This document shows, piece after piece, positions 15,403 through 48,737 of a stretch of DNA of 64,000 nucleotides; position 1 is the stretch's first letter; each line of letters opens with the position of its first letter. The notes beneath the pieces were generated by a model. The model was not told the origin of the DNA and searched no databases. It saw only the letters and a program-made list of their open reading frames with translations. A program made the position numbers and the translations under genes. The stretch spans positions 2,186,503 to 2,250,502 of the forward strand of contig CP129491.1 of the NCBI GenBank assembly GCA_030584105.1, given 5' to 3'. This DNA is from Ignavibacteriaceae bacterium. GTDB lineage: Bacteria; Bacteroidota; Ignavibacteria; Ignavibacteriales; Ignavibacteriaceae.

Positions 15403-16647
15403 TTAATTAATATTTTGATTTTCTATTTTGTCGGTATATAATTTTTTGAACCTCGCTCTAATCTCTGGAGTTATCGAAGGAGTCCCTATTCGCGAACGGG
15501 AAGCATGATAACTATCCAACAAATTGTGTATGTATGGTGGTTGAAGTCTTGCGACTCTTGTTATTTTTGACCGATTATTTTTATAAAATAAGGCTTCTCT
15601 TTTGAAAAAGATAGTCCCTCTACGAAAGTCGCATGCTAAACAAGGCTTTGAATTATAGTTTGCCCATGGAAGGATAAATTCAAAATATAGATGGGCTTGA
15701 TTTTCTAGTTTTATTTCTTTTTCAATTATTAGGAGACACTCTATTTCTATTTGTTTTTCTTGTTCATTAGTATAAAAATGTCGAATATCGCATTCAGGTG
15801 TAATAACTATATGATAAGAACCGTTAAGTCTAAATATATCCCCAGTAAATAATTTATCATTTTTGGGGGGATTAGAATATAAAAGATTTTTAACTAACTG
15901 AGACAACCTTTCAACAGCCCTATCATCAAACTTTTTAATTTTTTCCTTTGTGAAATCCTTTTTGATTTGCTTTTTCATCGCCTTTAATAAGGGTCCATCA
16001 TTCTTAATTTTTTCCGCCACTAACCTGTTTAACACCGAAATTACACCCACTGCAGGTTCTAAAAGGTCCAATTTATTAACATATGCAAAATAATCTATCC
16101 AGTTTGTATCATTTCCATCAAGAAAATTTAATTCTTTGTTCATTGTTCTAATCAAAGCATTTAAATAATTTCTCGGAACTTTAAGAGCTTTGTTTTTATT
16201 CGCTAATTTCTTTATTCCTTTAAATATTTTTTTAGATTCTTCAATTTGATTCTTAGGTTTTCGTTCGAACCTTATTCTATCTCCAAATTTTGCGGTGAAT
16301 TCTTTTTTTATTTCATCTGAAATACCCTCTTGAGAATATATATAGATAAGAGAATATATATCCTTTCCCCGTAAAGTGTTTTCTACAGTTAATTCTCCCG
16401 GTTCGATAAGATTCCCTTCATTTTGTGAGAGTTCATTATCATCTTGTGCGAATTTACGATCGAATTGCCAGTCTAAAATAATTGCAACCGGCGAAGCCAA
16501 AGAATCCAATAAAACTTCAAAACGCTGAATCGAATCAACAGGTATTACGAAATACTCCGTTGATTTTTTCAATTCATTAAATAATTTGTGTTCTTCAGAT
16601 TTCTGATCAAATACCTTATCGTCCACAAAGAGTATTACACCCTCCAT
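15403..16647 (-). CDS. receiver (CheY-like) domain protein with uncharacterised C-terminal effector domain
   Basis: REC-like pattern: VILFVDDK (acidic pair), VAIILDWQF (candidate phospho-acceptor Asp), IYIYSQEG, ERKPK. The C-terminal c. 160 aa has HIVITPECD ... CLLIIEKEIK (a D...ExK-like pattern). Its ATG directly abuts the upstream TAA. Confidence 0.6.
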   Translation of the reverse strand: MEGVILFVDDKVFDQKSEEHKLFNELKKSTEYFVIPVDSIQRFEVLLDSLASPVAIILDWQFDRKFAQDDNELSQNEGNLIEPGELTVENTLRGKDIYSLIYIYSQEGISDEIKKEFTAKFGDRIRFERKPKNQIEESKKIFKGIKKLANKNKALKVPRNYLNALIRTMNKELNFLDGNDTNWIDYFAYVNKLDLLEPAVGVISVLNRLVAEKIKNDGPLLKAMKKQIKKDFTKEKIKKFDDRAVERLSQLVKNLLYSNPPKNDKLFTGDIFRLNGSYHIVITPECDIRHFYTNEQEKQIEIECLLIIEKEIKLENQAHLYFEFILPWANYNSKPCLACDFRRGTIFFKREALFYKNNRSKITRVARLQPPYIHNLLDSYHASRSRIGTPSITPEIRARFKKLYTDKIENQNIN

Positions 16648-18930
16648 TTATCCTCCGTTTAATATTTTGGTTTCTGGTTTTACATTAAAATTTCTTTTGG
16701 ATACATCGATTACTTGTTGAAATTCAATCACGAAATTCGCCCCGTCGGTCAGTCTTTCAGATTCTTTTGTGGCAACATAAATTGTTGCATTGATCCTGTC
16801 TAAAATTTCTTTGACGATGTATAAACCTAAACCTCTCCCTTGTGCTTTCATTGAAAAAAATTCCGAAAAAATAAACAGTTCTATACCTTTTTTAACACCT
16901 GGGCCTGTATCAGCAATTGTTAGTTTCTTTTCCAATGAATCAATTTTGAATATGATTCTTTTATTTTTACTCCCTTTCAAATTCACCCAATAAATGGCAT
17001 TGTCAACAATGTTGATTAAGAATTGTAAAACTAATCCTAAATTGGTCCTTAACATAATGTCATCATCAGCGGTAATTTCTATTTTAATTTTATTCTGAAT
17101 TTCACTATCAAAATATTTCAATATTTTTTTAATTGATTGTAATAAACTAACCTCCTTAATTTCTCTTCTTTGAAACTTGAAAAGAGGTTGAATTATCTGA
17201 AGTTGTTCATACACAATTTTGATAATCTCCTGGACTTCTTTTAACATAGTTTCAGTCTCTGAGAAATCCATCCTATCACTCTTGATCTTAAGCAAACTGT
17301 TATTGATAATATTATTTAGTCTTGAGAGTAACATGAAAGTATCATGGGAAGATTTTTCAACTGCCATCCCAAGCCCTGCCAAATCTTCAACGGTTCGAAG
17401 TTTTAAGATAGTATTCTTTTGAAATTCTTCAATGCTTTTCTTAAGTTTATTAGCAGATTCAATAATTTTAAGATCGGTTCTTTCTTCTAAAGATTCTGTG
17501 AATTCTGTAATTGCGTCAGAAATTGACTGGTATGGTGCATTCGTATTTTGGGTAGATTTTAACTCCTTATGTATTTTATCAATTTTAATTTCTGCGTGAA
17601 ATATTTGTACAATCGATAGAACCACTGCTGCAAATTCGTCAAATATCCCACCAGAATTCATCAAACCTTGCCTGCTTGATGTATCTTTTAAATCTTTATT
17701 ATGCTCCTGAGAGATATATACAAAACCGACTATGTCACTATAACTAGGGTAATCACCGGCTTTTTGAACTGATCGCAACTTATCAAGTTCCAACCAATCA
17801 TATCCTTTCTCGCCAAACGGATATACTCTTACTCCATCTCTTAAAACATAAATAAAATGCTTTTTAAAAGCCTGAAGTTGTTTTCTATTAAGCTTTGAAT
17901 AATCTGGCTTTTTAAGATCATTTGCGAATAACGAAAATTTAAATTCACCAACAGATAACTTACTCTTATTGGACAGATACCCTTTCTTTTTCTTATTTAG
18001 TGCTTGAAGATCATAATTCTCTTTAGCTAAAATTTTATTGTCAAAAATTCTAATTATCTTGGAAAAGGCTCTCATCGGGTTTTTGGAGTTGTAGATAAAC
18101 TGAAGCTTCCCTTCATTATCAATCGTCCCGTACATCTCATAATCTGAATCCATTAAAATTTCTTTTAATGAATATTGGGATTCTTTAGTGATTAACTCAC
18201 CCTCCCAAATCATCTTAACATTAAAATCAGAGATAATTTCCTGTTTCAATTCTTCAGCTTTTGGGTCTTCAGCAGGAATCAATTTCTCGATTGATTCAAA
18301 AACACTCCTAAAATCATCTTTAGCCCACTTTTCTCTCAAATCAGTAATTCTTATAACCGTCCCACTCGATTTGATTAGTTCCCCATTTTGAAACTCCGTA
18401 ATAGTTGGTTCTATTTCACTAAGGAGTTTATGCTTTTTTGAACCTTCATCAGTGAAAAGCGTCGGTTCATCATCATCTAAGCCTTCGAAACTTACTTCCA
18501 AACAAAATTCTGATCCTTCATCTTTTCTGGTATAAACACTTACCTTTCTTCCAATTTTGTGAATCGCGAATCGTCCAATTCCTTTCTCACCTTGAATTGT
18601 TCGGCCAAGCTTCGTTACATTGTCCCTATTTATTTTTTTATCAAGTTTGTTAGGTGTTGCTGGTCGAAGCCACACTTCTTTCAGATCATTCAAACCCATC
18701 CCCAAACCATTGTCGATTATTTCAATTGCTTCCTCTCCACTATTTTTCGTTGAATTGGATTGGGAACCAGAGTCGTATTTAATAGTAACTTCAGTAGCAT
18801 CAGCATCGTATGAATTTTTTATTAACTCTGTAAGAGCAATTTTCCTATCGGTAATCAATTGATCACCCAATATGCTCAACAGTCTTGCGTACGGCTCAAA
18901 TTTATATTTAATTTTTTTATTTTTTGGCAC
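16648..18930 (-). CDS. double GHKL protein: N-terminal MORC/Hsp90/MutL-type ATPase plus C-terminal histidine-kinase-type ATPase
   Basis: N-terminal motifs ELIKNSYDADATEV, IEIIDNGLGMG and GEKGIGRFA. C-terminal motifs NIVDNAIYW (N box), IADTGPGV (G1) and GRGLGLYIV (G2), preceded by a possible H-box, VEKSSHDTF. The GTG start overlaps the upstream TAG by 1 nt. Confidence 0.7.
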   Translation of the reverse strand: MPKNKKIKYKFEPYARLLSILGDQLITDRKIALTELIKNSYDADATEVTIKYDSGSQSNSTKNSGEEAIEIIDNGLGMGLNDLKEVWLRPATPNKLDKKINRDNVTKLGRTIQGEKGIGRFAIHKIGRKVSVYTRKDEGSEFCLEVSFEGLDDDEPTLFTDEGSKKHKLLSEIEPTITEFQNGELIKSSGTVIRITDLREKWAKDDFRSVFESIEKLIPAEDPKAEELKQEIISDFNVKMIWEGELITKESQYSLKEILMDSDYEMYGTIDNEGKLQFIYNSKNPMRAFSKIIRIFDNKILAKENYDLQALNKKKKGYLSNKSKLSVGEFKFSLFANDLKKPDYSKLNRKQLQAFKKHFIYVLRDGVRVYPFGEKGYDWLELDKLRSVQKAGDYPSYSDIVGFVYISQEHNKDLKDTSSRQGLMNSGGIFDEFAAVVLSIVQIFHAEIKIDKIHKELKSTQNTNAPYQSISDAITEFTESLEERTDLKIIESANKLKKSIEEFQKNTILKLRTVEDLAGLGMAVEKSSHDTFMLLSRLNNIINNSLLKIKSDRMDFSETETMLKEVQEIIKIVYEQLQIIQPLFKFQRREIKEVSLLQSIKKILKYFDSEIQNKIKIEITADDDIMLRTNLGLVLQFLINIVDNAIYWVNLKGSKNKRIIFKIDSLEKKLTIADTGPGVKKGIELFIFSEFFSMKAQGRGLGLYIVKEILDRINATIYVATKESERLTDGANFVIEFQQVIDVSKRNFNVKPETKILNGG

Positions 18931-20198
18931 TATCGTTTCTTAAAAATGAGTATATGTTCTTTAGGATACACTTTAACACTATTCAATTCGCTTGGAGAAG
19001 TAAATCTCCCAGATATCGGGTGACGAGTTGTTGGAATCTGCTTCAATGAAATATTTCTCGTAATTCTTTTTTCTAAATAAAAACTTTCTTCTCTCATCAA
19101 ACTGATCAAAATATCCGAGGTGGGTATCGTAACTTCCCTAAGCTTACTATCTCCAACAACCATACAACAGGTTGCTCCTGGTTTTAAAATTCGATGTATT
19201 TCCTGAATTACCTGTTGCATTGAAATAAAATAATTCTCAATTTCTTTCGCAATTTTCTTATTTTTCACTGCTAATTGTGAAACAGTATCTGAGGCTAACA
19301 GACAATTTATTTCAGCTTCAATTTTTTCAGAGTAAAATGTTCCAATAAATTTTTTTCTAAATTCTCTAAGATCACTAAAAAAGTTAAACACATAACCAGA
19401 TAATTGATGAATATCCGCATATTCGTAAGATGTCGCATAAGGAGGGGAGGTAATTACAAGATCAACAGAATCATTTTCAAGTCCAGTATCCCGCGCATCT
19501 CTGAGATGAATTTCACTTTGAATATCCAATCGGTTCTTTTTACTTAGATAGCTATGAAATTCCATGTTCTTTTTCCACATTTTTTTAATCTGATATTCAA
19601 AGAGATTGAAAGGGTCCTTAATCTGTTTCTTTGGATCAATTTGTGGTTTAGTGCTATCTTGAAGCCAACGGCTGGAAGTTTTGAGAATGTTCGATAATCC
19701 AACTTTTAGAAAAGTCTCAAGTTCTTTATTATCTACTTCTTCGATACATTTTTTCAAATAGCCGATTTTGTTTTTCTGCTCTGGGCAAAACCAATAGTTA
19801 AGCCTCGGGTGATCGGATATATAGTATTTTTCTTCCTCGTTGTAGTTGCTAAACCACTCTTGAATTATTTCTAATAAATTTTGATGCGAACCTGGAGCAA
19901 TAGTAGTTATTTTCGATTTTGTTATCATTTCAGCAACTGGATTAACATCAAACCCAATAGACCTGTAGCCATGACTTTTTGCCTCAACCAATGTTGTCCC
20001 ACAACCGGCAAATGGATCAACAATAAGACAATCCTCTGTAGCGTAGGTCTCTATCAATTTGGAAACAATCTGTGGAATAAATTTTGCAGGATACCTGTGG
20101 TAACCGTGGGTGTAGCTATCGATAGACCTGTGCCCGGCAAAAGACCACTCATCTGAACATTCGTTAACTTTACTGTTCTCAACTGCTACACTCAACAC
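18930..20198 (-). CDS. DNA methyltransferase (N4-cytosine or N6-adenine; motif I precedes SPPY)
   Basis: HRYPAKFIPQIV..IVDPFAGCGTTLVEAK (motif I region) and DLVITSPPYATSYEY (motif IV). AT-rich. Confidence 0.8.
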   Translation of the reverse strand: MLSVAVENSKVNECSDEWSFAGHRSIDSYTHGYHRYPAKFIPQIVSKLIETYATEDCLIVDPFAGCGTTLVEAKSHGYRSIGFDVNPVAEMITKSKITTIAPGSHQNLLEIIQEWFSNYNEEEKYYISDHPRLNYWFCPEQKNKIGYLKKCIEEVDNKELETFLKVGLSNILKTSSRWLQDSTKPQIDPKKQIKDPFNLFEYQIKKMWKKNMEFHSYLSKKNRLDIQSEIHLRDARDTGLENDSVDLVITSPPYATSYEYADIHQLSGYVFNFFSDLREFRKKFIGTFYSEKIEAEINCLLASDTVSQLAVKNKKIAKEIENYFISMQQVIQEIHRILKPGATCCMVVGDSKLREVTIPTSDILISLMREESFYLEKRITRNISLKQIPTTRHPISGRFTSPSELNSVKVYPKEHILIFKKR

Positions 20199-28693: not shown

Positions 28694-31495
28694 TTATGCC
28701 GCTATTTCCTCTTTTACCCTTGAAATACATTTTTCAAGGCTATGCCACACTTCATAATTCCAGAATCTCAGAACTTTCCAGCCTTCTCTTTGCATTGTAT
28801 AATCTCTCACATTATCATAACTGCTCCGCGTTCCCGGAACGGCACCTTCATGCCCGCTGCCGTCAACTTCAATGCAGATTTTTTTATCGTCAACAAAAAG
28901 CGCGATATCCATTCTGTACGCAAAAAAATTATACTGGCATTCCGGTTCAAATCCTTCTTCACGGAGTCTTGTTGCCATAATTTTTTCTTCGGGTGTCACG
29001 GGTTCGTGATTGTTTGAAGGGTTAAGGTTTTTTTCCGCATATTTTGCCAAACGACTTAATAATTTGCATTTTGATTTTTTACAAAACTGTTTGTTTCCAA
29101 CGACGATTAAATTAGATTTTGCCCGGGTCAATCCCACATTTATAAGATTGTCGTTCCCTGAATAAAAGAACTCGTTATTATTTTTTAATTTACCCTCAAT
29201 CTCGATTGAGTAACTGACTCCAAGAGAGAAAATCATTACATCTTTTTCATCTCCCTGAAACCGGTGAATTGTATCAATCACAATTTCTTTATTTCCTTTA
29301 TTCTTAGAAAGCAGCGGGGTACATGCCTCCAGTATCTTTTGGACTTGTAATCGAAACGGTGAAGTAATTCCTATACTTGTTATTTCTTCAGAATCAATTA
29401 ATACACTCAAAATTTCTTTGCATTTTTCAATTTCTTTCGAAAGAATAAATTTATTATAAAGCGGTATATATTCATCTTTCACATCAATCCACTCAAAAGT
29501 TGGTTTTTCCCCCCAATTATTTAATTCCAGATAATTAGTACGAATTTTTAATTTATTTCCGTAAAACTCATTGTTTGAAAATGAAATAATCTCTTTTTTT
29601 GATCGAAAATGTTCATCGAGCATTATTTCAGAAGAACCGTCAATATTTTTTGAACGGTGCGCTATTAGTGACAAGATTGAACTTACCCCAAACTCCCACT
29701 CATTGAACTTCATCAAATTAAAATACTGTTTGAATAGTGTTTTACGCCTTTGGGATGAAAGATTTGTAATATGATTAAGCTGTTTTTCATCACCAACTAC
29801 AATTAAACTTTTCGCCCTCAACATTAAACAGAGAGTGGAAGGTATATCGCATTGGCTCGCTTCATCTATTATAACATAGTCAAATATTCCCGGCGAAAGT
29901 GGGAGTTGCCCCGAAACAGACAGGTTTGAAACCGTCCATATTAAAAGAAATTTTCTTATTGGTAAAAATTTTTCCTTAAATTCAACTCGTTCCTGCTTAC
30001 TGTTGAATTGATTATCTATCCAGAAACTAAGTAATCGCTGATATTCATTCAGTAATTTTTTTTCGTTTTCATCGCGGAAAGAATAGTTTTTCCTGATCGT
30101 TAATATTAATATCGCTTTATTAATATTTAATAATTCTTCCCTTTTTCGAAAAATGAGGTCTGTAAGTTCTTCAACGCGCTTCAATTTTTCCGCCCTTAAA
30201 ATCGCTTTGTGATACCTGACCATTTTCTTTATTCTCGGAGAAATTAGGGCAGCTTTCGGAATTGAGTTTAATTTTTGAAGGTTGTAATAAATTTTTTCGT
30301 AATTAACGCTTCTTCCTTTAATATATTTTCTATATTCTTCAGAAATACTTAATCGGGTGTTATTTATTTCTTCCTGTTCAATTAACAGTTGATCAATCTC
30401 TCGTTCAATTTGTTTTGATTTAGCGGAAAGATCACGCAATTTCTGATCTTCCGCCGGCATAAAATTGTTATAATCCTGAATTTCCTGAATATTCGCTTTT
30501 AAAATAGATACTAAGTCCTTTTGACCTTCTGATCTTCCCAGTTTTAGCATAAAAGGCAGTTGGTCAAGGTATTTGTCAATTCGTGACATTACCGTTTCTA
30601 TCGCCTTATGGTTATGGCTGCTGAAAAGAATCGATTTGTTTTTCAAAAAAGCATTAAATATTATGTTTATTACAACATCTGACTTGCCGGTGCCGGGAGG
30701 TCCCTGAATATTGGTTATGCCTGAGGATAAAGCCATTTTAACCGCTTCTTTTTGTGAAGCATTAAGAGGTGTAAACATAGAAACATCTTCGTTCCCGGAT
30801 ATTTTACGGTTTGGCTCAAACAGATATTTTAGTGCACTTTCTGAAAAAAAATCATCCAAAGACTTTGAATTTAATTTGGCAATTTCTTTTAACTCGAACT
30901 CGAGTCCTTTTGTGAAATTAGATTTTTCACAGATAAAAAACGACGCTGCATTGGTATAAATATTTTTTTCCTTCTGTTCTTCCGGGTCCGTACTGATAAA
31001 TTGTTCCAAAGTTTTCATCAATTCTTCAACAATATTTCTCTTTTTCCCGTTGATTGGCTCAGTTAAATTAAGAGCTTCAACCTGCCTCCGAAAACCGTTC
31101 AGGTCAATTCCCATTTCTTCAAAAAAAGTCGAATTAAACCTGAACTCTTCATAATCCACTAAAACAAGTTCTTTCATTTCAGTGAGTATAAAAACAAAAG
31201 CAGGAATTATTTTTTTGTATTCTTTCTGATGAAAGATTGGGAAACCAATTACAAAATCTGTTACTTTTGCTTTTTCATCATTTATACCGAGTCTTTCTTT
31301 TATCCGTTGTATAGAATCAGCAGGAAAGTTCTCATTTTTTTGAAATAACTCAAACTCTTCTTCCTCCAAATTGAGGTAAGTTCTTTTCTTTTTCTTTTCA
31401 TCTTTGGCAACTTCTGTGGCAATTTTAAATTCTCTGTCTTCAATAACATACTGATGATAGTAGTCAATCAGCTTTCTAAAATCTTCTTTTTTCAT
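28694..31495 (-). CDS. SF1B (Upf1/Dna2-like, AAA_11/AAA_12) helicase fused to C-terminal DUF559/Vsr-like PD-(D/E)xK endonuclease
   Basis: Walker A IQGPPGTGKS, Walker B VIIDEASQC, plus VVGDEKQL, LDEHFRS, IHRFQGDEKDVMIFS and NVGLTRAKSNLIVVG. The C-terminus reads YRMDIALFVDDKKICIEVDGSGHE...REGWKVLRFWNYEV. Confidence 0.85.
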   Translation of the reverse strand: MKKEDFRKLIDYYHQYVIEDREFKIATEVAKDEKKKKRTYLNLEEEEFELFQKNENFPADSIQRIKERLGINDEKAKVTDFVIGFPIFHQKEYKKIIPAFVFILTEMKELVLVDYEEFRFNSTFFEEMGIDLNGFRRQVEALNLTEPINGKKRNIVEELMKTLEQFISTDPEEQKEKNIYTNAASFFICEKSNFTKGLEFELKEIAKLNSKSLDDFFSESALKYLFEPNRKISGNEDVSMFTPLNASQKEAVKMALSSGITNIQGPPGTGKSDVVINIIFNAFLKNKSILFSSHNHKAIETVMSRIDKYLDQLPFMLKLGRSEGQKDLVSILKANIQEIQDYNNFMPAEDQKLRDLSAKSKQIEREIDQLLIEQEEINNTRLSISEEYRKYIKGRSVNYEKIYYNLQKLNSIPKAALISPRIKKMVRYHKAILRAEKLKRVEELTDLIFRKREELLNINKAILILTIRKNYSFRDENEKKLLNEYQRLLSFWIDNQFNSKQERVEFKEKFLPIRKFLLIWTVSNLSVSGQLPLSPGIFDYVIIDEASQCDIPSTLCLMLRAKSLIVVGDEKQLNHITNLSSQRRKTLFKQYFNLMKFNEWEFGVSSILSLIAHRSKNIDGSSEIMLDEHFRSKKEIISFSNNEFYGNKLKIRTNYLELNNWGEKPTFEWIDVKDEYIPLYNKFILSKEIEKCKEILSVLIDSEEITSIGITSPFRLQVQKILEACTPLLSKNKGNKEIVIDTIHRFQGDEKDVMIFSLGVSYSIEIEGKLKNNNEFFYSGNDNLINVGLTRAKSNLIVVGNKQFCKKSKCKLLSRLAKYAEKNLNPSNNHEPVTPEEKIMATRLREEGFEPECQYNFFAYRMDIALFVDDKKICIEVDGSGHEGAVPGTRSSYDNVRDYTMQREGWKVLRFWNYEVWHSLEKCISRVKEEIAA

Positions 31496-41051: not shown

Positions 41052-41438
41052 AACAATTTATCAATGGAAAATCAATTCTGTAAAAAAAATCTGCATTTAT
41101 GTTGGACACTGTATCCGTAAAAATTTATTCCGTTTTTGGAATTTTTTCGGTTAGATGCGACCTGTAAAAATTCCACAAACAAAGATAACTTTGCAGAATT
41201 AAAATAGAGCAAAAATAAAAGTTGCAAAAAAATCACCGGTAAATATACGCCAAAACAGCAATTCCACTTTTAAACAGAATATTGTTAGAATTTTTGCAAA
41301 ATAATCTTCAACCTCTTTTCGCATCCCTCGCTTGAGCCAAGATTTTTTCAGCTTTCAAAATGAAAATCTGTAAACGATTAATAACTTAACACAAAATTTC
41401 TAAAATTTGTTTATTGGATTTAAATTCAAATTTGTAAA

Positions 41439-41467
41439 TTGACAACCGTAATAATTTATTTTAAACT
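41439..41467 (+). promoter_or_regulatory. candidate sigma70-like promoter (TTGACA-N17-TAAACT)
   Basis: -35 at 41439-41444 and -10 at 41462-41467, about 19 nt before the TTG start of the HD gene. Confidence 0.3.
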
Positions 41468-41485
41468 TCGCAGGTTCTAACAGAG

Positions 41486-42778
41486 TTGACTTTAAAATTC
41501 CAATATGAAGTTCGTGATCCAATTTATGGATTTATACCTTTTACTGAATTAGAAAAGTTGGTTATAGAACAACCGGCTTTTCAAAGACTTAGAAGGATTT
41601 CCCAACTTGCGTTAACCCACTATGTTTACCCCGGTGCAACTCACACCAGGTTGTCACATTCTTTGGGGGTGATGCACACTGCATCTCTGATGTATCAATC
41701 GGTCGTTGAGTCAAGTGGTGAAGATTTAAAACGAGAGTTTTATTTTGATGACTCATCTCTAAGCAGAATGCATCAAATAGTTCGATTAGCCGCTTTGTTA
41801 CACGATATCGGGCATAGCCCTTTCTCTCATGCTTTAGAATCGGTTATGCCAAAAAACAAGAAGACGGGTGAACAGTATAAACATGAGGACTATACCATAG
41901 CAATTATTAATAAAATTATTGGAGATATTCCAAAAAATAGTCCTCATCAAATAAGCAAAGAATCGATTACCGATCTGATTGATCGAAAAGGGTTAGAACT
42001 AAAAAGTTTCGCTCTCTTCTTTAAATCGTTAATCTCGAGTCAGTTAGACGCTGATAGGGCTGATTATTTATTAAGAGATTCTTATCATTGTGGTGTGAAA
42101 TATGGCGTTTATGACCACCCAAGATTGGTTAATTCTATTACTTTAGGGTTTGATCAATATAATAACCCATTCATCGGAATAAAAGAGGAAAGTTGGCAAT
42201 TAGCTGAAAGTTTGGTCTTAGCCAGATATTGGATGCATTTTTATGTCTATCTTCATAAAACACGCAGAATTTTTGACTATCATTTAGAAGAAGCAGTCAA
42301 ATATATTTTTCAGGATAAAAATCTTCCTGCTCCTAGTTCTTTAAATAAATATATTGAATTAGATGATGGTAGTATCTGGGAAAAGTTAAAAAAGAATAAA
42401 AATAATGTTCATTGTAACGCGATTTTAAATAGAGATCATTTTAGGTTACTTTACTCTAACAGTAAGGTAGATTCTGATTATGAGAATACTAAATTCTCTA
42501 AAATTATTGATAAATTAGAAGAACAAAATATCGAGTATTTTATTGATTCTTTTTCATCAAATTTCTATAAAACTGAAACAGACAAAAAACCTGATAATGC
42601 GGATTCTTATTTCGACCCTAAAGAAATTTACATTGTTGATGCTGAAAGAAATATTACCCCTTTAGCTGAAAAATCAACTTTTTTATCAAAATTAACAAAG
42701 GAAATAAGTTTTAAAAACATTTATGTTGCCCCAAAGAACAAAAAAGAGGCAAAAAAAATAATTGGTGAACTAAAATGA
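41486..42778 (+). CDS. HD-domain (d)NTP triphosphohydrolase-like protein (COG1078 / SAMHD1-like)
   Basis: RDPIYGFI, FQRLRRISQL, THTRLSHSLGV, LAALLHDIGHSPFSH and QLDADRADYLLRDSYHCGV. TTG is the only in-frame start near the conserved N-terminus. Confidence 0.8.
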   Translation: MTLKFQYEVRDPIYGFIPFTELEKLVIEQPAFQRLRRISQLALTHYVYPGATHTRLSHSLGVMHTASLMYQSVVESSGEDLKREFYFDDSSLSRMHQIVRLAALLHDIGHSPFSHALESVMPKNKKTGEQYKHEDYTIAIINKIIGDIPKNSPHQISKESITDLIDRKGLELKSFALFFKSLISSQLDADRADYLLRDSYHCGVKYGVYDHPRLVNSITLGFDQYNNPFIGIKEESWQLAESLVLARYWMHFYVYLHKTRRIFDYHLEEAVKYIFQDKNLPAPSSLNKYIELDDGSIWEKLKKNKNNVHCNAILNRDHFRLLYSNSKVDSDYENTKFSKIIDKLEEQNIEYFIDSFSSNFYKTETDKKPDNADSYFDPKEIYIVDAERNITPLAEKSTFLSKLTKEISFKNIYVAPKNKKEAKKIIGELK

Positions 42779-43269
42779 AATACAACTATAAAGTGCAATA
42801 TCTTAAAGAGTTAATTAATTTTTTACAGGCTAATGACCCTTCTGGTGAAATTGGCAGAACGAAAGTTCAAAAATTATTATTTATTCTTGATCAAAAATAT
42901 AACTTAGGATTTAACTTCACCCTTTATCATTACGGGCCTTACAGTTGGGATGTATCACACCTTCTTCAGTTTGCTGTTAATCAAGAGCTAATTACTGAAG
43001 TATGGAACCAAGCAACAGGTTATAAAATATCGCCGACTAATAATTTGGATAATGTTGAAACGGAAGAAGGGATCAAAGAAAATATCGAAAACACTATCTC
43101 CGGTTTTTTAAAGTACAATGTTAAAGATTTAGCAATTATAGCTACCGGACTGTTAATTCGTGAGGGGACAAAAAAGAATTTGGACGAAATCGCTCAGATG
43201 GTTCATAATATAAAACCGGGTTCTGATCTCAATAAAATTAAATCTCTTCTTAACGAACAGATTACATGA
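42775..43269 (+). CDS. Panacea/SocA-like (DUF4065, YwgA-like) small protein
   Basis: ATGA overlap with the HD gene. GRTKVQKLLFILDQKY...LYHYGPYSWDV fits the T.KLQKLLY...GP pattern of the Panacea domain, as recalled from memory. Confidence 0.5.
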   Translation: MKYNYKVQYLKELINFLQANDPSGEIGRTKVQKLLFILDQKYNLGFNFTLYHYGPYSWDVSHLLQFAVNQELITEVWNQATGYKISPTNNLDNVETEEGIKENIENTISGFLKYNVKDLAIIATGLLIREGTKKNLDEIAQMVHNIKPGSDLNKIKSLLNEQIT

Positions 43270-43822
43270 TCCGGAAAGAATGAAGATTGCGGAGAGTTTT
43301 GTGTTATTTAAATGGGAGTACGAAGTGGTCCTTCGGATGCGAGTTTTTCATAACCGAGATTTTCTGCGATTTCTGATTCTCTCATTGCCTCGAGAGAATT
43401 TTTTATCAGGTTGTTAATCACATTATCATTATCCCTTAGGCGGGCTTCTGCTTTAATTCGTCTCGGTGGCGATGTTTGTTAATTACACCATTATTCTCTC
43501 TCAGTTTTTCATGGGTTTTTGCCCGTATAAATTCTTTTTGAAATTGGTCAATAACAACATGTGTAAGTTTAATGGTAGTTTTTCTTAAAAATTGATACTG
43601 TGTGCAATAACAAGAAAATAAGGGTAGATACTCCCCACCTACAATCCGAATTTTAAACCAATTACATAATATCCTGAACAGTCTCAAATTTCCTGCATTC
43701 CCTCCTACAATCCAAAAAAAATTCACACTTGAGAAATTATCACACAACTTTCCTTCATTTTTTTATTCCTAATAAAACACTAAATTAAACTTAATTAATT
43801 GCATTTTAAAAGGTTACATAAC

Positions 43823-46534
43823 ATGAGTACTATTCTTTCTACTGAGTTATTATCACTTCTTCACCATGTGGAACTAAATAAGAGCGGTTGGTGGGAAGAA
43901 TCTGTCCAAAGTTTCATTTCAGTTGCTTTTATTCAAAATGGAAATGCCTGGATGGTAGATTCTGAAATTATACAATTTTTGACCGAAAAACTTGAACTAC
44001 AGATTGATCAAGATCGTATCAAAAAACAAATTGAAGTTATGTTGTCTAAGAAAATGCTGAAATATTCAGATGGAAAATTTAATTTATCAATAACTTTTTA
44101 TTCAGAATACTCAGAAAATTATCAACAACAATTAGATGTAGAAAATAAAGCAAAGAAATGTTTTTTTGAAATTAGTCGGCTCATCGATCAACAAACAGAC
44201 CCCGAACAACTATGGAGTGAGTTTAATAATCAACTTTTAAATCCTTTGATAAAAGAGAGTGGCGTAAAAACTATTGAGATAATTACAGGGGCAAATTCAC
44301 ACTCTTTCGAAGAATTTAGTCGATTCACGAATTATCTTTCCAAATATGCTGAGAAAAAAACTAAGATTCAAGAAATTTTGGTTAAATTCTTAAATTCTAA
44401 AGATGAAAATGTCCATAAATACTTGCTTACAAGGTTAAGTGCTTACTTTTTCCTTGCGGCTACAAATTTAGATACCGGAACAATAGACCATATTTATTCT
44501 CTTTCAAAAATGCAAACAAATCTTAAAGTATTCGTTGATACGAATTTCTTGCTTAGTTTACTCGATTTGCATGATAATCCGTTAAATGATGCTTCAAACT
44601 CTCTAAAAACGTTGGTAAATGAGATTAATAAAAAAGTGAATGTAAAATTCTTTATTCTTCCAATTACAATCAGTGAATTTCAAAATTTAATAAAAAAAAT
44701 CAGTGAACGATTACGAGAGCTAAACCCGCAACTCAACCAGGCAATTGCTTTAGAAGAAAATCCAAATATTAGTGGTTTAATAAAACGCTATTACCAAAAA
44801 TGCCGTGAGAAAAATTCGATAATAAAAATTGATGATTATTTTGGACCATATTTAAACAATTTTAGTTCTGTTATAAGAAACAAAGGATTGGAAATTTATC
44901 AGGTTGATTTATCAGAATATGAAACTGACAGAAAAGTTATTGATGATATTGACTTTCAGATAAATTACCGTTTCAGTAAATCTGAAAAAGAGGGTAAATT
45001 TTATGGTTGGTCTGAAGAACAAAAAGAAAATGAAAAATCTATTATGCATGGTAAATTTAACCATGATTGTCAAATTTGGCATTATGTTAATGATCTAAGA
45101 CCGGAATATATAGATTCAATAAAAGAGGTCGAACATTGGATATTAACTTTAGATTTTAATTTCTTAGAATTTGATCGAATTAAGCTTATTCAGATGAATA
45201 AGAAGATTGCCACATGTCTTCACCCTAAAGACTTTATAGCATTACTACAATTTTGGGTCCCTCGGACACAAAAACTTGAAGATGCAATTTTAGGTAACAT
45301 TCAATTACCGTTATTATTTAAAGAGATTGATATTAATAAAGAAAAAGCAATAATACAAATTCTAGAAGCTATTTCACATTTTGAAAACAGCGAAGATTTC
45401 AGTCCCGAATTAGTAGCTGAAATTTTAACCGAAATCGCTCTTAAAGGTAAAATTATCCAAAGTAATTCAGTTGAAGTAAATGTTCAATTAATTCAGTCGG
45501 AAATACTACAAAAGTACGATTCATTAAAGGAATCGCATCAAAAAGTCAACAAAGAAAATGAAACATTTAGAAAAGAATTAAAAGAATTAGAACAATCGAT
45601 TAATGAGAATATCTCTCGTTCTTTAGGACGTCGGAGAAATTATCATATTGATGGGATGATTGAACGGAAAAAGATACAAATTCAAGAAATCACCATTAGG
45701 ATTTCTGACAAAGAAGAATTAATCAATCGAGCAAACAAAGAATATATTCAAACCCGAAAACAAATAAAACATAGGATATTATCTATCTTTAAGGGAGCAA
45801 CATATTTAGAATTATTAAGAGATAAAATTCAGAAGAAATATTACAATAAAAATGAAATTGACCTTTTAAAATTAGAAGAAGCTTCGCTTAAAAAAGAATA
45901 TGATGAGCTTCAAGAATTGAATAAAAATGAAAATATTATCATTTTTTGCGAAAATACAGATTCTGAATTATTGAATGATTTAGGCTATCAGGGTATTTAT
46001 TTCTCACCAGTAAAGAATAGTAACGAAGTTTTTATCAAGACAAGAGCAAATAACACATTTTTTGGGTTGCGTGATCGTGATTTTTTGATCGACGAGGAAA
46101 TTAATAAGATTAGAGAACTCCACCCAAATTTGCAGATTTTAGAATATTACTGTTTAGAAAATTATCTATATCACCCTGAAAATCTTAACAGCCTTGGTTT
46201 AGAAAACTTTACAATAAACGAATATCTTAACGAATTAATCAATCAAAAGAAAAATAAAATAAAGAAGATCATACTGAACATAAAGAATTCTCGCAGCTCG
46301 TATGAAGAGTTTAAATTACCCCAAGAAAAAATTAAACAGAATGAAGAAATATTGTTCGAATATTTGGAATCAGATGATATTGAAAAATTTCTCAAAGCCT
46401 TTAGTCTAAAATCTGAATTTGATAAATCTTGTTTGTCTAAGTACAATCTTAATAAAAAAAAATTGGCTTCAACACGATGGTTTAAAAGTAGGATCGATAA
46501 ACTTCTTGAGTCATTGGAACTCTCAGATAGTTAA
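43823..46534 (+). CDS. large multidomain protein: N-terminal unknown, PIN-like domain, coiled coil, C-terminal DUF4435/Toprim-like domain
   Basis: ATG 43823 is preferred over TTG 43799. KVFVDTNFLLSLLD ... ILPITISEF ... WILTLDFNF is PIN-like. Residues c. 560-720 form a K/E-rich coiled coil. IIIFCENTDSELL ... FFGLRDRDFL ... YYCLENYLYHPE is DUF4435/OLD-Toprim-like. Confidence 0.6.
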   Translation: MSTILSTELLSLLHHVELNKSGWWEESVQSFISVAFIQNGNAWMVDSEIIQFLTEKLELQIDQDRIKKQIEVMLSKKMLKYSDGKFNLSITFYSEYSENYQQQLDVENKAKKCFFEISRLIDQQTDPEQLWSEFNNQLLNPLIKESGVKTIEIITGANSHSFEEFSRFTNYLSKYAEKKTKIQEILVKFLNSKDENVHKYLLTRLSAYFFLAATNLDTGTIDHIYSLSKMQTNLKVFVDTNFLLSLLDLHDNPLNDASNSLKTLVNEINKKVNVKFFILPITISEFQNLIKKISERLRELNPQLNQAIALEENPNISGLIKRYYQKCREKNSIIKIDDYFGPYLNNFSSVIRNKGLEIYQVDLSEYETDRKVIDDIDFQINYRFSKSEKEGKFYGWSEEQKENEKSIMHGKFNHDCQIWHYVNDLRPEYIDSIKEVEHWILTLDFNFLEFDRIKLIQMNKKIATCLHPKDFIALLQFWVPRTQKLEDAILGNIQLPLLFKEIDINKEKAIIQILEAISHFENSEDFSPELVAEILTEIALKGKIIQSNSVEVNVQLIQSEILQKYDSLKESHQKVNKENETFRKELKELEQSINENISRSLGRRRNYHIDGMIERKKIQIQEITIRISDKEELINRANKEYIQTRKQIKHRILSIFKGATYLELLRDKIQKKYYNKNEIDLLKLEEASLKKEYDELQELNKNENIIIFCENTDSELLNDLGYQGIYFSPVKNSNEVFIKTRANNTFFGLRDRDFLIDEEINKIRELHPNLQILEYYCLENYLYHPENLNSLGLENFTINEYLNELINQKKNKIKKIILNIKNSRSSYEEFKLPQEKIKQNEEILFEYLESDDIEKFLKAFSLKSEFDKSCLSKYNLNKKKLASTRWFKSRIDKLLESLELSDS

Positions 46535-46926
46535 ATTTAATTCGAATTAGTGTCCCATTTAATATTCCGAACACTGAACCAAAACAGATTTAATTCTATA
46601 TCAATTAACTTAGTTAATCAACAATTAAGATTGAACAGCTACAGTTTATAATTCTTCGGAAATCTCCGGCAGTGTTTTTTCAAATTCTATTTGAAGGAAT
46701 TTCAGATATGTCCGGTTCGTTTTAGTCAGAGATATTGCTTATTGACACCAATTTTTAGCGGCGTTATCTTTAAGTTTTACTTCAATATCTTCTCGCTCCT
46801 TTTTTTCAATTATCCGGTTAGTTCATCACTTGTAATAGCAATAAAATCAGTGAGGCAATTTCTAATATTCGCATTGTTTTACCAAATATTTATCGTAAGA
46901 TTCAAATCTATTTTCGTGGCTTCCCA

Positions 46927-47442
46927 TTATTTTAATTTAATTTGAAAGGCACTGATCAAACCATCTTCTGCTCTTTTTCGTACATCGATTAAATCGGCAT
47001 CAGTTGCCATTGTTTTAGGAATCTGCAAAGAAAACTCTAATTCTTTACCTGATTCGATATCTACACGGTAGTAACCGGGCAAAGGTTTACCTAAAATTTC
47101 GCCATTTTTTAGAATAAAAATATCTTCACCACTCAAAATAAAAGGTTCAAAACTTGTGTTTTTTATTTTAAGTTTCAAACTTGAGTGATATAAGTTAGTG
47201 GTATCATACGATATTACTGTCAGTTTGATTGTTAACTTTCGTAAAATTTTTGTTGATGTAAGACCCTGCGCACCCAAATACTGATATGAAATATTAAATT
47301 CTTTATTTGGCATTGTTACACTTGGTGTAAGTTTTGAAGAATCAATTTTCACCTCAGGTTTTACCGTAACTTTGACTTCTTCTTTGCAACCAAATATGAA
47401 AATGCCAACTACAACTACAGAAAGGTAAATCAAGATTTTCAT
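46927..47442 (-). CDS. lipoprotein, unknown function
   Basis: Lipobox MKILIYLSVVVVGIFIFGC. The 171-aa protein looks beta-rich. Confidence 0.6.
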   Translation of the reverse strand: MKILIYLSVVVVGIFIFGCKEEVKVTVKPEVKIDSSKLTPSVTMPNKEFNISYQYLGAQGLTSTKILRKLTIKLTVISYDTTNLYHSSLKLKIKNTSFEPFILSGEDIFILKNGEILGKPLPGYYRVDIESGKELEFSLQIPKTMATDADLIDVRKRAEDGLISAFQIKLK

Positions 47443-47667
47443 TACTTCATTCCTTTTATATTTTATTGATGATTATGTTGTGTATGATGATTTTGAAAGC
47501 AGCCTTTCATTCTTAAGTTAAGTAAAAATTGCCGACGATTGAATTATGACTAAGACCAAAAACAAAATTACCAAAATTATTTTCGATTAAAAAATTCTCC
47601 AGAACTCTGTTTCATTTTTTCATTACATAGTTTGTACATTTCTAGATTTTTGGGGGGAATAAGCCCG

Positions 47668-48737
47668 TTACCATTCAACGCCCTCCATCATTTCTTCAAG
47701 TGCGGCTTGTACCCGTTCATCGGGATCGTGTTGCAGGGTTGCATACAAGGAAAATATATCAACTGTGCCGCCATCTGATAAGGGGCGGGGGTTATATTTC
47801 CAGATTTCAAGTTGAAAATCCGCATCTTCTTGGAAATCAGCTATTTCAAATTTGCCCGGAACCCGAGCCGGAGACTTATGGGTATCTTCTTTGAAATCAA
47901 CCGTCTCAAAATTGTCTTGAATCTGAACCCGAGCCGGAACCTTAGGGGTGCCTTCTTTGAAATCAACCATTTCAAAATTGCCGTTTTTAATCATTTTTTC
48001 AAATTCACGGTTTCTGCACGCATAGGTTTTCACGGCGTCATCGGCAAGCATGCTGTATTGGAAAGTGCCGTTACGCCCGCTTCGGGTAGTTGAAGCACGG
48101 TTTTTTTCGTTTCTCCGACCATAAATTTAACGGATGCCACCGGGTTAAACAGATACTGTCTTCCTTTTTCCCAAATCGTTTTGCGATCGGCTGCAAGTTG
48201 CGGAATTTTTTTGCGCCCGTCGGAAATTCTTCGCACCAATTCCTTATTTTCAAGTTCCTGCAAAGCCCGCGAAACGCTCATGTTCGAGTACCCAAGTTTT
48301 TTCGGCAATTTGCCCGGGGGTGGTTGTTCCGGAATGATTTTGCAGAAGAAAGATGAAAACCTGCTGCGCCACAGGGGTGAAGTGGTGCTTCGGTTCACTG
48401 ATCTGCTGACCTCTGTTGCGAATGCTTATCATAAAATCGGGGGAGATACGCCTGCCTGCCGGGGATGATAAAACTGAACCCTGTATTTTATCAGACGAAA
48501 CGCTTCAACAGTAGTGAGCGCCTCGGTGCAATATATTACTGGTTTGTGCAGGAACCGAAGAATTGCCTCAACCGATTTTTTGATTTCATAAGGGGTGAGG
48601 CGCGTTTTTCTTTTATCGAATGCAAACAGCACCTTCGTGTTGAATAATTCACCTTCAACAATTTGAAACCCTCTGAAGCAAATAGAGTGGCAGCTTTTTC
48701 GCACCGGCTTTGTACCCAAAGTTCGGCTGAACTCCAA
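47668..48737 (-). pseudogene. multiply frameshifted wHTH (MarR-like) regulator-family gene
   Basis: A continuous homolog-like reading needs four frames: ORFs 48429..48737, 48250..48432, 48030..48398 and 47668..48051. The HTH QIAEKLGYSNMSVSRALQELENKELV is split at c. 48300. The C-terminal part holds about 3 x 25-aa repeats (NFE(M/T)VDFKE(G/D)T..(V/S)PARV). Confidence 0.55.

Follow-up and report, generated by a model that had tools for sequence, protein, structure and literature searches.

Does a small gene that overlaps the end of a gene for a SAMHD1-like HD hydrolase encode a protein that holds this hydrolase in check, and do the two together form a defence module? The question is raised by a pair of genes in a stretch of 64,000 nucleotides (nt) from an Ignavibacteriaceae bacterium (GenBank assembly GCA_030584105.1, contig CP129491.1, positions 2,186,503 to 2,250,502 of the forward strand), which is called the window below. 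An original prediction, made from the letters of the window, had proposed a toxin-antitoxin-style or phage-triggered nucleotide-depletion module for these genes, one encoding an HD protein and the other a small protein described as Panacea/YwgA-like. It is well established that viruses are countered by depletion of deoxynucleoside triphosphates (dNTPs), in animals through SAMHD1 and in bacteria through Dgt-type dGTPase, dCTP deaminase and Clover. To our knowledge, no bacterial dNTP triphosphohydrolase (dNTPase) with a demonstrated role in defence is of the SAMHD1 type, and we know of no case other than Clover in which it is understood how the cell silences such an enzyme. The reading favoured here, to which a probability of about one half is given, is that the pair is a mobile, bicistronic and coupled module whose small protein binds and restrains a SAMHD1-like dNTPase, the whole serving as a dNTP-depleting anti-phage or toxin-antitoxin system.

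The HD protein

The HD protein was assigned to the SAMHD1/COG1078 family with a full catalytic set, as had been read from its motifs, and Pfam, PDB matches and residue alignments agree on this. The Pfam models HD (35.9 bits, cut-off 22) and HD_assoc_2 (41.7 bits, cut-off 23.1) both scored above their gathering thresholds. The PDB matches were led by an Aquifex aeolicus protein (2hek, E 4e-42), followed by 9mr6 (4e-30), a Bacteroides thetaiotaomicron protein (2q14, 8e-29), Enterococcus faecalis EF1143 (5e-27) and many SAMHD1 entries at about 1e-20, while Dgt-type dGTPases matched far more weakly (2e-5 or worse). It has been reported that 3IRH (EF1143), 2Q14 and 2HEK form together with SAMHD1 a SAMHD1-like family (COG1078 YdhJ) that is distinct from the Dgt-like enzymes (Yu et al. 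2021, PMC7854603). Judged by its sequence, the HD protein is a SAMHD1-type and not a Dgt-type enzyme, because it fell below the cut-offs for anti-phage dGTPases: it scored 26.5 bits with the model NF041026 (cut-off 400) and 44.8 bits with TIGR01353 (cut-off 152), and the PADLOC dGTPase model covered residues 26-144 only.

When aligned residue by residue with EF1143 and SAMHD1, the HD protein was found to hold the complete catalytic set (HTRLSHSLGV, LLHDIGHSPFSH, KHED and QLDADRADYLLRD), in the layout RxxH, HD..H....H, HE and D.DR.DY..RD. Among 22 paired and 61 unpaired relatives (pairing is described below), residues R55, H58, H106, D107, H110, H115, H133, D190, D193, R197 and D198 are invariant and E134 is replaced in one paired and one unpaired relative; Y194 likewise aligns with EF1143 and SAMHD1 and is invariant or nearly so in these 83 relatives. 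The same alignment also shows Q33, R36 and H257 to be conserved, and E28 stands at the position of SAMHD1 D137. From the motifs, Q33 and R36 are read as probable equivalents of Q142 and R145 in the A1 site of SAMHD1, and H257 as that of the highly conserved H376, the last being read from the YLHK/YQHK motif and not from the printed alignment. The HD protein may be expected to act as a dNTP triphosphohydrolase. Two features that might have set the paired enzymes apart were rejected. Catalytic and presumed allosteric residues, whose loss could have marked deregulated enzymes, are equally conserved in paired and unpaired proteins, and a C-terminal HD-protein domain specific to YwgA-paired enzymes is not supported, since unpaired proteins match the C-terminal region too and several paired ones do not.

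The small protein

The description of the small protein as Panacea/YwgA-like stood in part. What did not stand is a direct match to the Panacea family PF13274; what did is the link through its relatives and its fold. In the family alignment, 68 of the 137 members matched PF13274 (SocA_Panacea) at E<=0.01, the best at 3.7e-8, and the small partner of a 48%-identical HD protein gave a weak PF13274 flag. The small protein itself matched positions 171-308 of 329 of the PADLOC DarG model (E 2.6e-8) and positions 183-264 of 338 of the NCBIfam DarG model (24.5 bits, cut-off 250). Searched by sequence against PDB, it hit 7yk3_B, the C-terminal domain of DarG in the crystal of Mycobacterium tuberculosis DarTG, at E 0.0025. 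An AlphaFold2 (AF2) model built from a five-sequence alignment reached a predicted local distance difference test score (pLDDT) of 91 and a predicted template modelling score (pTM) of 0.87, and Foldseek returned 7yk3 D/B as the only significant PDB matches of this model (E 4e-6, probability 1.00, template modelling score (TM) 0.72/0.70). The remaining Foldseek matches showed a weak winged-helix likeness (MarR-like, ORC) in the N-terminal half, and the predicted architecture is a winged-helix-like N-terminal half joined to a helical region.

In the Panacea layout described for PanAT systems, a GPV strand comes after a conserved central helix (Kurata et al. 2022, PMC8832971). Near-invariant positions in the small-protein family are G27, T29 and K33, Y53-G54-P55, and G82, L119, T124 and K147; T29 lies in the helix 28-42 and G54-P55-Y56 in the strand 54-56 of the small protein, so that the central-helix T and the GP-x strand are both present, with Y replacing V. 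Several homologues carry the JGI label 'uncharacterized protein YwgA'. Taken together, transitive homology and the modelled fold indicate that the 'Panacea/YwgA-like' label is valid at the superfamily level, and the nearest characterised relative of the small protein is the toxin-binding domain of DarG. The family is large: at E<=1e-3, an exhaustive profile search returned 1,789 representative clusters, of which nearly all are stand-alone proteins of 160-195 aa, which sets its size at 1,789 clusters at least at 50% identity. It is also mildly acidic (median isoelectric point 5.7), and charge mimicry by the small protein was dropped as an idea, mild acidity being uninformative.

Gene coupling at the junction

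Both open reading frames (ORFs) lie where they had originally been placed (Table 1), and the quoted motifs were found in their translations, SHSLGV, LLHDIGHSPFSH and LDADRADYLLRD in the HD protein and TKVQKLLFILDQ and YHYGPYSWDV in the small protein. They are real genes and not chance ORFs, because the HD protein matches PDB 2hek at E 4e-42 and SAMHD1 at 1e-20, and the small protein has 48-49% identical homologues and a model with pLDDT 91. The HD ORF starts with TTG, which is identical to the JGI call and is the sole start fitting the conserved N-terminus. The predicted overlap was read directly in the junction sequence CTAAAATGAAATAC, where the HD stop TGA and the small-gene ATG both fall within ATGA. 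Among 65 non-redundant homologous junctions, 35 overlap, 17 of them by the identical 4 nt, and the remainder are mostly no more than 30 nt apart. In one metagenome, the same island carries a 427-aa HD variant (locus L174, 6276-6283) whose stop no longer overlaps the small-gene start; the ATGA overlap is thus not fixed even within this population.

No exact match to the Bacteroidetes-type promoter TTTG-N17-21-TAnnTTTG was found near the pair, and sigma-70-like promoter matches upstream were at chance level only. A terminator-like hairpin with a T-run follows the small gene and, by position alone, suggests that the bicistronic unit ends ahead of the 911-aa gene downstream; hairpins of this type (5 sites against 3.0 expected) were no commoner than in shuffled sequence.

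Pairing and co-inheritance

The co-occurrence across relatives that the original prediction had proposed to check was found from both sides. One genome per species was scanned for the HD-side survey, giving 80 HD loci, and a YwgA-like ORF was adjacent in 19 of them (18 directly downstream, 1 upstream); the 7 loci whose HD proteins are most similar to the query were all paired. From the side of the small protein, 80 metagenomic loci were collected, 78 with room upstream, and an HD gene lay directly upstream on the same strand in 64 of the 78, with 3 more in which it was about 240 nt away or frameshifted. About 85% of the sampled YwgA-like genes therefore have this HD gene immediately upstream. 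HD and YwgA-like genes form an obligate, co-diverging pair. For 39 non-redundant pairs, the distance matrices of the two proteins gave a Mantel r of 0.93 (permutation maximum 0.42), the small protein being the faster-evolving partner, and on a neighbour-joining tree of 83 HD proteins the paired state required 7 Fitch changes, compared with a random mean of 19.6 and a minimum of 13.

On this tree, unpaired Bacteroidota HD proteins (Ferruginibacter, Chitinophaga, Mucilaginibacter, Saprospiraceae) form a clade of their own, and the HD protein of the window groups with paired ones of Gemmatimonadota, Chloroflexota, Planctomycetota, Bacillota and Coatesbacteria. The genes flanking the pair in the window contain Por_Secre_tail domains, which suggests a Bacteroidota host. 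No YwgA-like neighbour was found at the Listeria and Enterococcus EF1143-type HD loci examined.

In place of an HD gene, the remaining YwgA-like genes have upstream a gene for a PLD nuclease, for a DNA methylase or for a DUF4357 protein, or one for a SIR2 protein with HD remnants behind it; in one case PCNA lies upstream. The SIR2 arrangement was seen in locus L125 (2547-5471) and also in L127: a SIR2_2 protein of 594 aa, an HD_assoc_2 remnant and an HD C-terminal fragment precede an intact YwgA-like gene, which looks like partner replacement or a decaying HD gene. In locus L090 (5377-6615), within a housekeeping context and with no HD domain nearby, a YwgA-like gene follows a stand-alone ORF that matches only the HD C-terminal region (profile positions 326-423). 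Locus L049 (7308-8435) has one HD gene followed by two tandem YwgA-like genes.

Composition, mobility and neighbouring genes

The region had been described as AT-rich (rich in adenine and thymine), and its guanine plus cytosine (GC) content is indeed 0.28-0.35 between about 41 and 48 kilobases (kb) of the window, compared with about 0.43-0.53 on either side. The shift recurs among relatives. For 56 paired loci, the GC content of the pair minus that of its flanks averaged -0.078, with 43 loci below -0.03 and none above +0.03, whereas 52 unpaired HD genes averaged +0.006. The closest homologues (61-62% identical for the HD protein, 48-49% for the small protein) occur in other Por_Secre_tail-bearing genomes, where they adjoin a Type ISP restriction-modification enzyme. 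This HD-YwgA-Type ISP trio is intact in loci L004-L007 and L181-L183 despite differing flanks, and one version of it has an IS3-type transposase upstream.

The neighbours of the pairs were compared with PADLOC. The 126 neighbours of 22 paired genome loci matched 290 families (E down to 1e-250), which include Type I and Type IIG restriction-modification, HmaA/B and DrmD-like families. As a control, the 142 neighbours of 20 unpaired loci matched 35 families, mostly generic (DinG, PglZ-like, IscS-like, MotB), with no restriction-modification among them. Among the 104 neighbours of 24 paired metagenomic loci, Type III methyltransferases were commonest (best 4.6e-234). Defence genes are thus enriched beside the pairs, in a small sample and with no genome-wide background. 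In some loci the arrangement is close: the pair lies between HmaA and HmaB on the same strand in L018 (2483-10843), directly after a Type III Mod gene on the same strand in L164 (1644-8049) and L151 (2915-8013), and just upstream of a Type III Mod gene in L153. The ORFs after the pair in L164 and L151 (842 and 866 aa) are homologous, with 67% mutual identity. Further paired contexts include PglX-like, HEC-05 and AAA_15/21 proteins, HipBA, HicA, and an integrase/HTH_17/ArdC/Mu Gam element.

The pair behaves as an accessory unit, moves horizontally and is often found beside defence genes. It might, as the original prediction allowed, have turned out to be a housekeeping operon present in all relatives outside accessory regions, and for this clade that outcome is removed. 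The pair shows the combination by which a type II toxin-antitoxin system is judged, being bicistronic, tightly coupled, co-inherited and mobile. In the window, neither a transfer RNA gene nor, at the island, convincing flanking direct or inverted repeats were found.

Proposed mechanism and alternatives

The pair is a credible candidate for a nucleotide-depleting anti-phage or toxin-antitoxin system. In the most likely mechanism, the small protein would bind the HD enzyme stoichiometrically and, like a type II antitoxin, hold it inactive, inhibiting rather than activating it. If the small protein were lost or displaced, for example by phage-induced shut-off or through direct sensing, the HD enzyme would be freed; by hydrolysing dNTPs it would cut off the supply for phage DNA replication, and its toxicity would lead to growth arrest or abortive infection. 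Phage infection would be the presumed trigger and protection against phage the presumed role. By analogy, the part of restrainer is given to the small protein because PanA and the DarG C-terminal domain, which are characterised members of its superfamily, act by binding their partners and neutralising them. A wider proposal is that a large, phylum-spanning family of prokaryotic SAMHD1 homologues serves as immune or toxin effectors, each checked by a dedicated protein of the Panacea/DarG-C-terminal-domain type and often located inside restriction-modification operons, with restriction and dNTP starvation perhaps coupled. It is put forward tentatively, with the odds leaning against it.

Several observations weigh against a defence module. 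The small protein gave no match to Pfam, PF13274 included, even at E<=1, and the toxin-first order of the window pair is the minority arrangement for PanAT (Kurata et al. 2022). The small protein had no match by tblastn in phage and plasmid collections and the pair was absent from IMG/VR in a pattern scan at the sensitivity used; HD-only matches in the phage and plasmid collections were remote, at 27-37% identity, and unpaired. A relative with an empty site was not seen for the island, which is uninformative, as 23 of 23 contigs with the identical TraB-like neighbour also carry the island. Moreover, a substantial share of the paired loci lies amid ordinary metabolic genes, YwfO-type HD proteins are treated in the literature as persistent Firmicute housekeeping genes, and the equal conservation of residues in paired and unpaired HD proteins means that the paired enzymes bear no sign of being deregulated or toxic. 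These last points would also fit a housekeeping or nucleotide-pool enzyme, be it a heteromeric dNTPase or a triphosphohydrolase with a sanitising role, in which the small protein is an ordinary subunit for regulation or oligomerisation; transfer would be incidental, and the pair would have no toxin-antitoxin or immune function. It has been reported that YwfO, persistent in Firmicutes, co-evolves with PolC and is kept in the minimal genome Syn3.0. Separately, SAMHD1-like dNTPases have been classed as auxiliary genes that have specialised paralogues (Yu et al. 2021, PMC7854603). Several paired loci do sit among metabolic genes, active-site and presumed allosteric residues are as conserved as in unpaired enzymes, and strict co-divergence would fit any obligate heteromer. 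However, pairs are AT-shifted relative to their flanks and unpaired HD genes are not; the phylum distribution is patchy and the window HD protein groups with those of other phyla and not with the Bacteroidota-type clade; pairs repeatedly adjoin, or are embedded in, mobile elements and operons for restriction-modification and defence; the EF1143-type loci of Listeria and Enterococcus examined lack a YwgA-like gene; and the sole structural relative of the small protein is a toxin-binding antitoxin domain. A housekeeping role is accordingly considered unlikely, though it is the strongest of the competing explanations.

The same two proteins could also be wired in the opposite sense, with the small protein as a sensor or activator of the HD enzyme, or as a DNA-binding transcriptional autoregulator, and not as its inhibitor. 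The weak structural matches of its N-terminal half to winged-helix proteins (MarR-like, ORC) would suit such wiring, and SAMHD1-type enzymes need allosteric activation and tetramerisation, so that, with the presumed allosteric residues kept, the partner could gate assembly either way. But the characterised relatives inhibit by direct binding, and the placement of the small gene, downstream and in overlap, suggests that the two proteins are co-produced stoichiometrically; opposite wiring therefore appears less probable again than a housekeeping role. Least probable of the three is that the pair serves as an accessory module of an adjacent restriction-modification, Hma or BREX-like system, and not in its own right as a toxin-antitoxin or defence unit, for example by slowing replication through dNTP depletion or by recognising modified DNA, with the winged-helix-like half targeting DNA. 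The placements between HmaA and HmaB (L018) and directly after or adjoining Type III Mod genes (L164, L151, L153), the Type ISP trio kept among different flanks, the prevalence of Type III methyltransferase models among the neighbour matches, and the proposed recognition of phosphorothioated nucleic acid by SAMHD1-like enzymes (Yu et al. 2021, PMC7854603) all point in that direction. Most paired loci, including that of the window, however, have no recognisable adjacent restriction-modification gene, and the variety of partner types (I, IIG, III, Hma) is more in keeping with shared residence in defence islands than with a specific functional coupling.

Other features of the window

The features of the pair and of the AT-rich island around it are collected in Table 1. 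Next to the pair lies a 911-aa ORF, which was rejected as a third component of the module, having no homologue in any of about 180 related loci. Its earlier description as a PIN/Toprim-like protein found no support in Pfam, PADLOC, NCBIfam or PDB, where it had no match, nor in a single-sequence AF2 model, which was unusable (pLDDT 33); the label goes back to short motifs visible in the translation (VDTNFLL; IIFCENTDSE...RDRDF) and was not validated.

Table 1 Coordinates of the gene pair and of associated features in the window
Feature	Position	Strand	Description
HD gene	41486..42778	+	430 amino acids (aa), SAMHD1-like (COG1078/YdhJ) HD-domain phosphohydrolase; presumed dNTP triphosphohydrolase effector
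Small gene	42775..43269	+	164 aa, YwgA/DarG-C-terminal-domain/Panacea-like; presumed binding partner and regulator of the HD enzyme
ATGA stop/start overlap	42775..42778	+	Read from the sequence; implies translational coupling
Terminator-like hairpin and T-run	43375..43400	+	Consensus scan; about 106 nt 3' of the small gene, 5' of the 911-aa ORF
AT-rich island	41052..47650	none	Composition profile; borders approximate
911-aa orphan ORF	43799-46534	+	Inside the AT-rich island
171-aa ORF	46927-47442	-	Inside the AT-rich island

A second AT-rich cluster of three genes (GC 0.31-0.34) lies at 15403-20198 on the minus strand and encodes a protein of 422 aa that resembles N4/N6 DNA methyltransferases, one of 760 aa with two ATPase regions of the GHKL type (Hsp90-N-like and histidine-kinase-like) and one of 414 aa without a relative in PDB; the cluster looks like a further island of the restriction-modification-like or defence kind. 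In another AT-rich stretch, at 28694-31495 (minus strand), a 933-aa protein carries JGI Pfam domains of an AAA_11/AAA_12 (Upf1-like) helicase together with DUF559 and MTES_1575 endonuclease-type domains and is possibly a defence helicase-nuclease. A direct repeat with a 66-nt period at 47859-47980 (two 56-nt copies, 88% identical) lies inside the coding region of a 377-aa MarR/TrmB-like gene that borders the island.

Significance

With this module, the pairing of a true SAMHD1-family enzyme with a protein from a proven antitoxin superfamily is open to direct testing. If the favoured reading is true, prokaryotes would be included in the shared immune ancestry of SAMHD1, the Panacea-associated toxin cluster T34 (see below) would gain an enzymatic function, and the widespread YwgA family would gain a role. 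Under the wider proposal, the SAMHD1 branch, and not only the Dgt branch, would be tied to prokaryotic antiviral defence, and a new mode of dNTPase control, by a protein inhibitor, would be added. If the favoured reading is refuted, a regulatory subunit for housekeeping dNTPases would be defined instead. New in this analysis are the link to the DarG C-terminal fold, the fidelity and co-divergence of the pair, its foreign composition, and its recurrent placement next to or within restriction-modification and defence operons.

Comparison with known systems

The pairing had been described as functionally unexplained, and this holds in part. It was already catalogued by Kurata et al. (2022, PMC8832971), whose Dataset S1 lists 'HD domain-containing protein / YdhJ' as the putative toxin cluster pT33/T34 beside Panacea proteins, with T34 rows from Ammonifex, Desulfofundulus and Caldicellulosiruptor in toxin-antitoxin order, one with a 4-nt overlap; these rows are marked 'notest', and the HD-Panacea pairing was neither analysed nor tested there. 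In the searchable library, no functional study of YwgA or of an HD-Panacea system was found. In PanAT systems, the toxin is neutralised by direct binding (Kurata et al. 2022, PMC8832971). The window pair resembles PanAT and T34 in having a Panacea-superfamily small protein beside, and often overlapping, a variable partner, here in toxin-first order with a -4 overlap, and it shares with them the COG1078 HD partner and the motif of central-helix T and GP-x strand. It differs in that its small protein falls short of PF13274 and belongs to a YwgA/DarG-C-terminal-domain-like subfamily, and, whereas PanA is promiscuous, this subfamily is about 85% faithful to one partner, with which it co-diverges.

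With DarTG, the small protein shares the fold of the DarG C-terminal domain (7yk3; Foldseek E 4e-6, TM 0.72/0.65), and its sequence matches that domain along the GK/T..QK helix and the YGPYS strand. The DarG C-terminal domain reportedly binds and inhibits its toxin (Deep et al. 2023). Unlike DarG, the small protein has no macrodomain, its partner is an HD hydrolase and not the ADP-ribosyltransferase DarT, and the identity is about 18%. The Bacillus subtilis proteins YwfO and YwgA are alike in name and family, since homologues of the small protein bear the JGI label YwgA and YwfO is a COG1078 HD protein. In contrast to the accessory behaviour of the present clade, ywfO is regarded in the literature as a persistent housekeeping gene, which leaves a housekeeping role plausible in some lineages.

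On the side of the enzyme, the HD protein is like the SAMHD1-like dNTPases (EF1143 3irh/2o6i, 2q14, 2hek and human SAMHD1) in its COG1078 YdhJ family and its matching catalytic residues. No dedicated protein partner is known for those enzymes and the EF1143-type locus checked has none; human SAMHD1 differs further in being regulated by nucleotides and phosphorylation and in carrying a SAM domain. Depletion of dNTPs against phage is reportedly carried out by a Dgt-type dGTPase and by dCTP deaminase (Tal et al. 2022). The defence dNTPases of that group, including Clover, are of the Dgt type, from which the HD protein of the window differs as a SAMHD1-type enzyme (26.5 bits against 400). Clover is closest in the proposed logic, that of a dNTPase effector restrained in uninfected cells by a dedicated partner gene: its defence dNTPase CloA needs a dedicated restraint, which is a nucleotide signal from the nucleotidyltransferase CloB (PMC12265719). 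The window pair would differ from Clover in the kind of restraint, a binding protein in place of a nucleotide signal, as its partner has no nucleotidyltransferase motifs and instead has a DarG-C-terminal-domain/Panacea-like fold.

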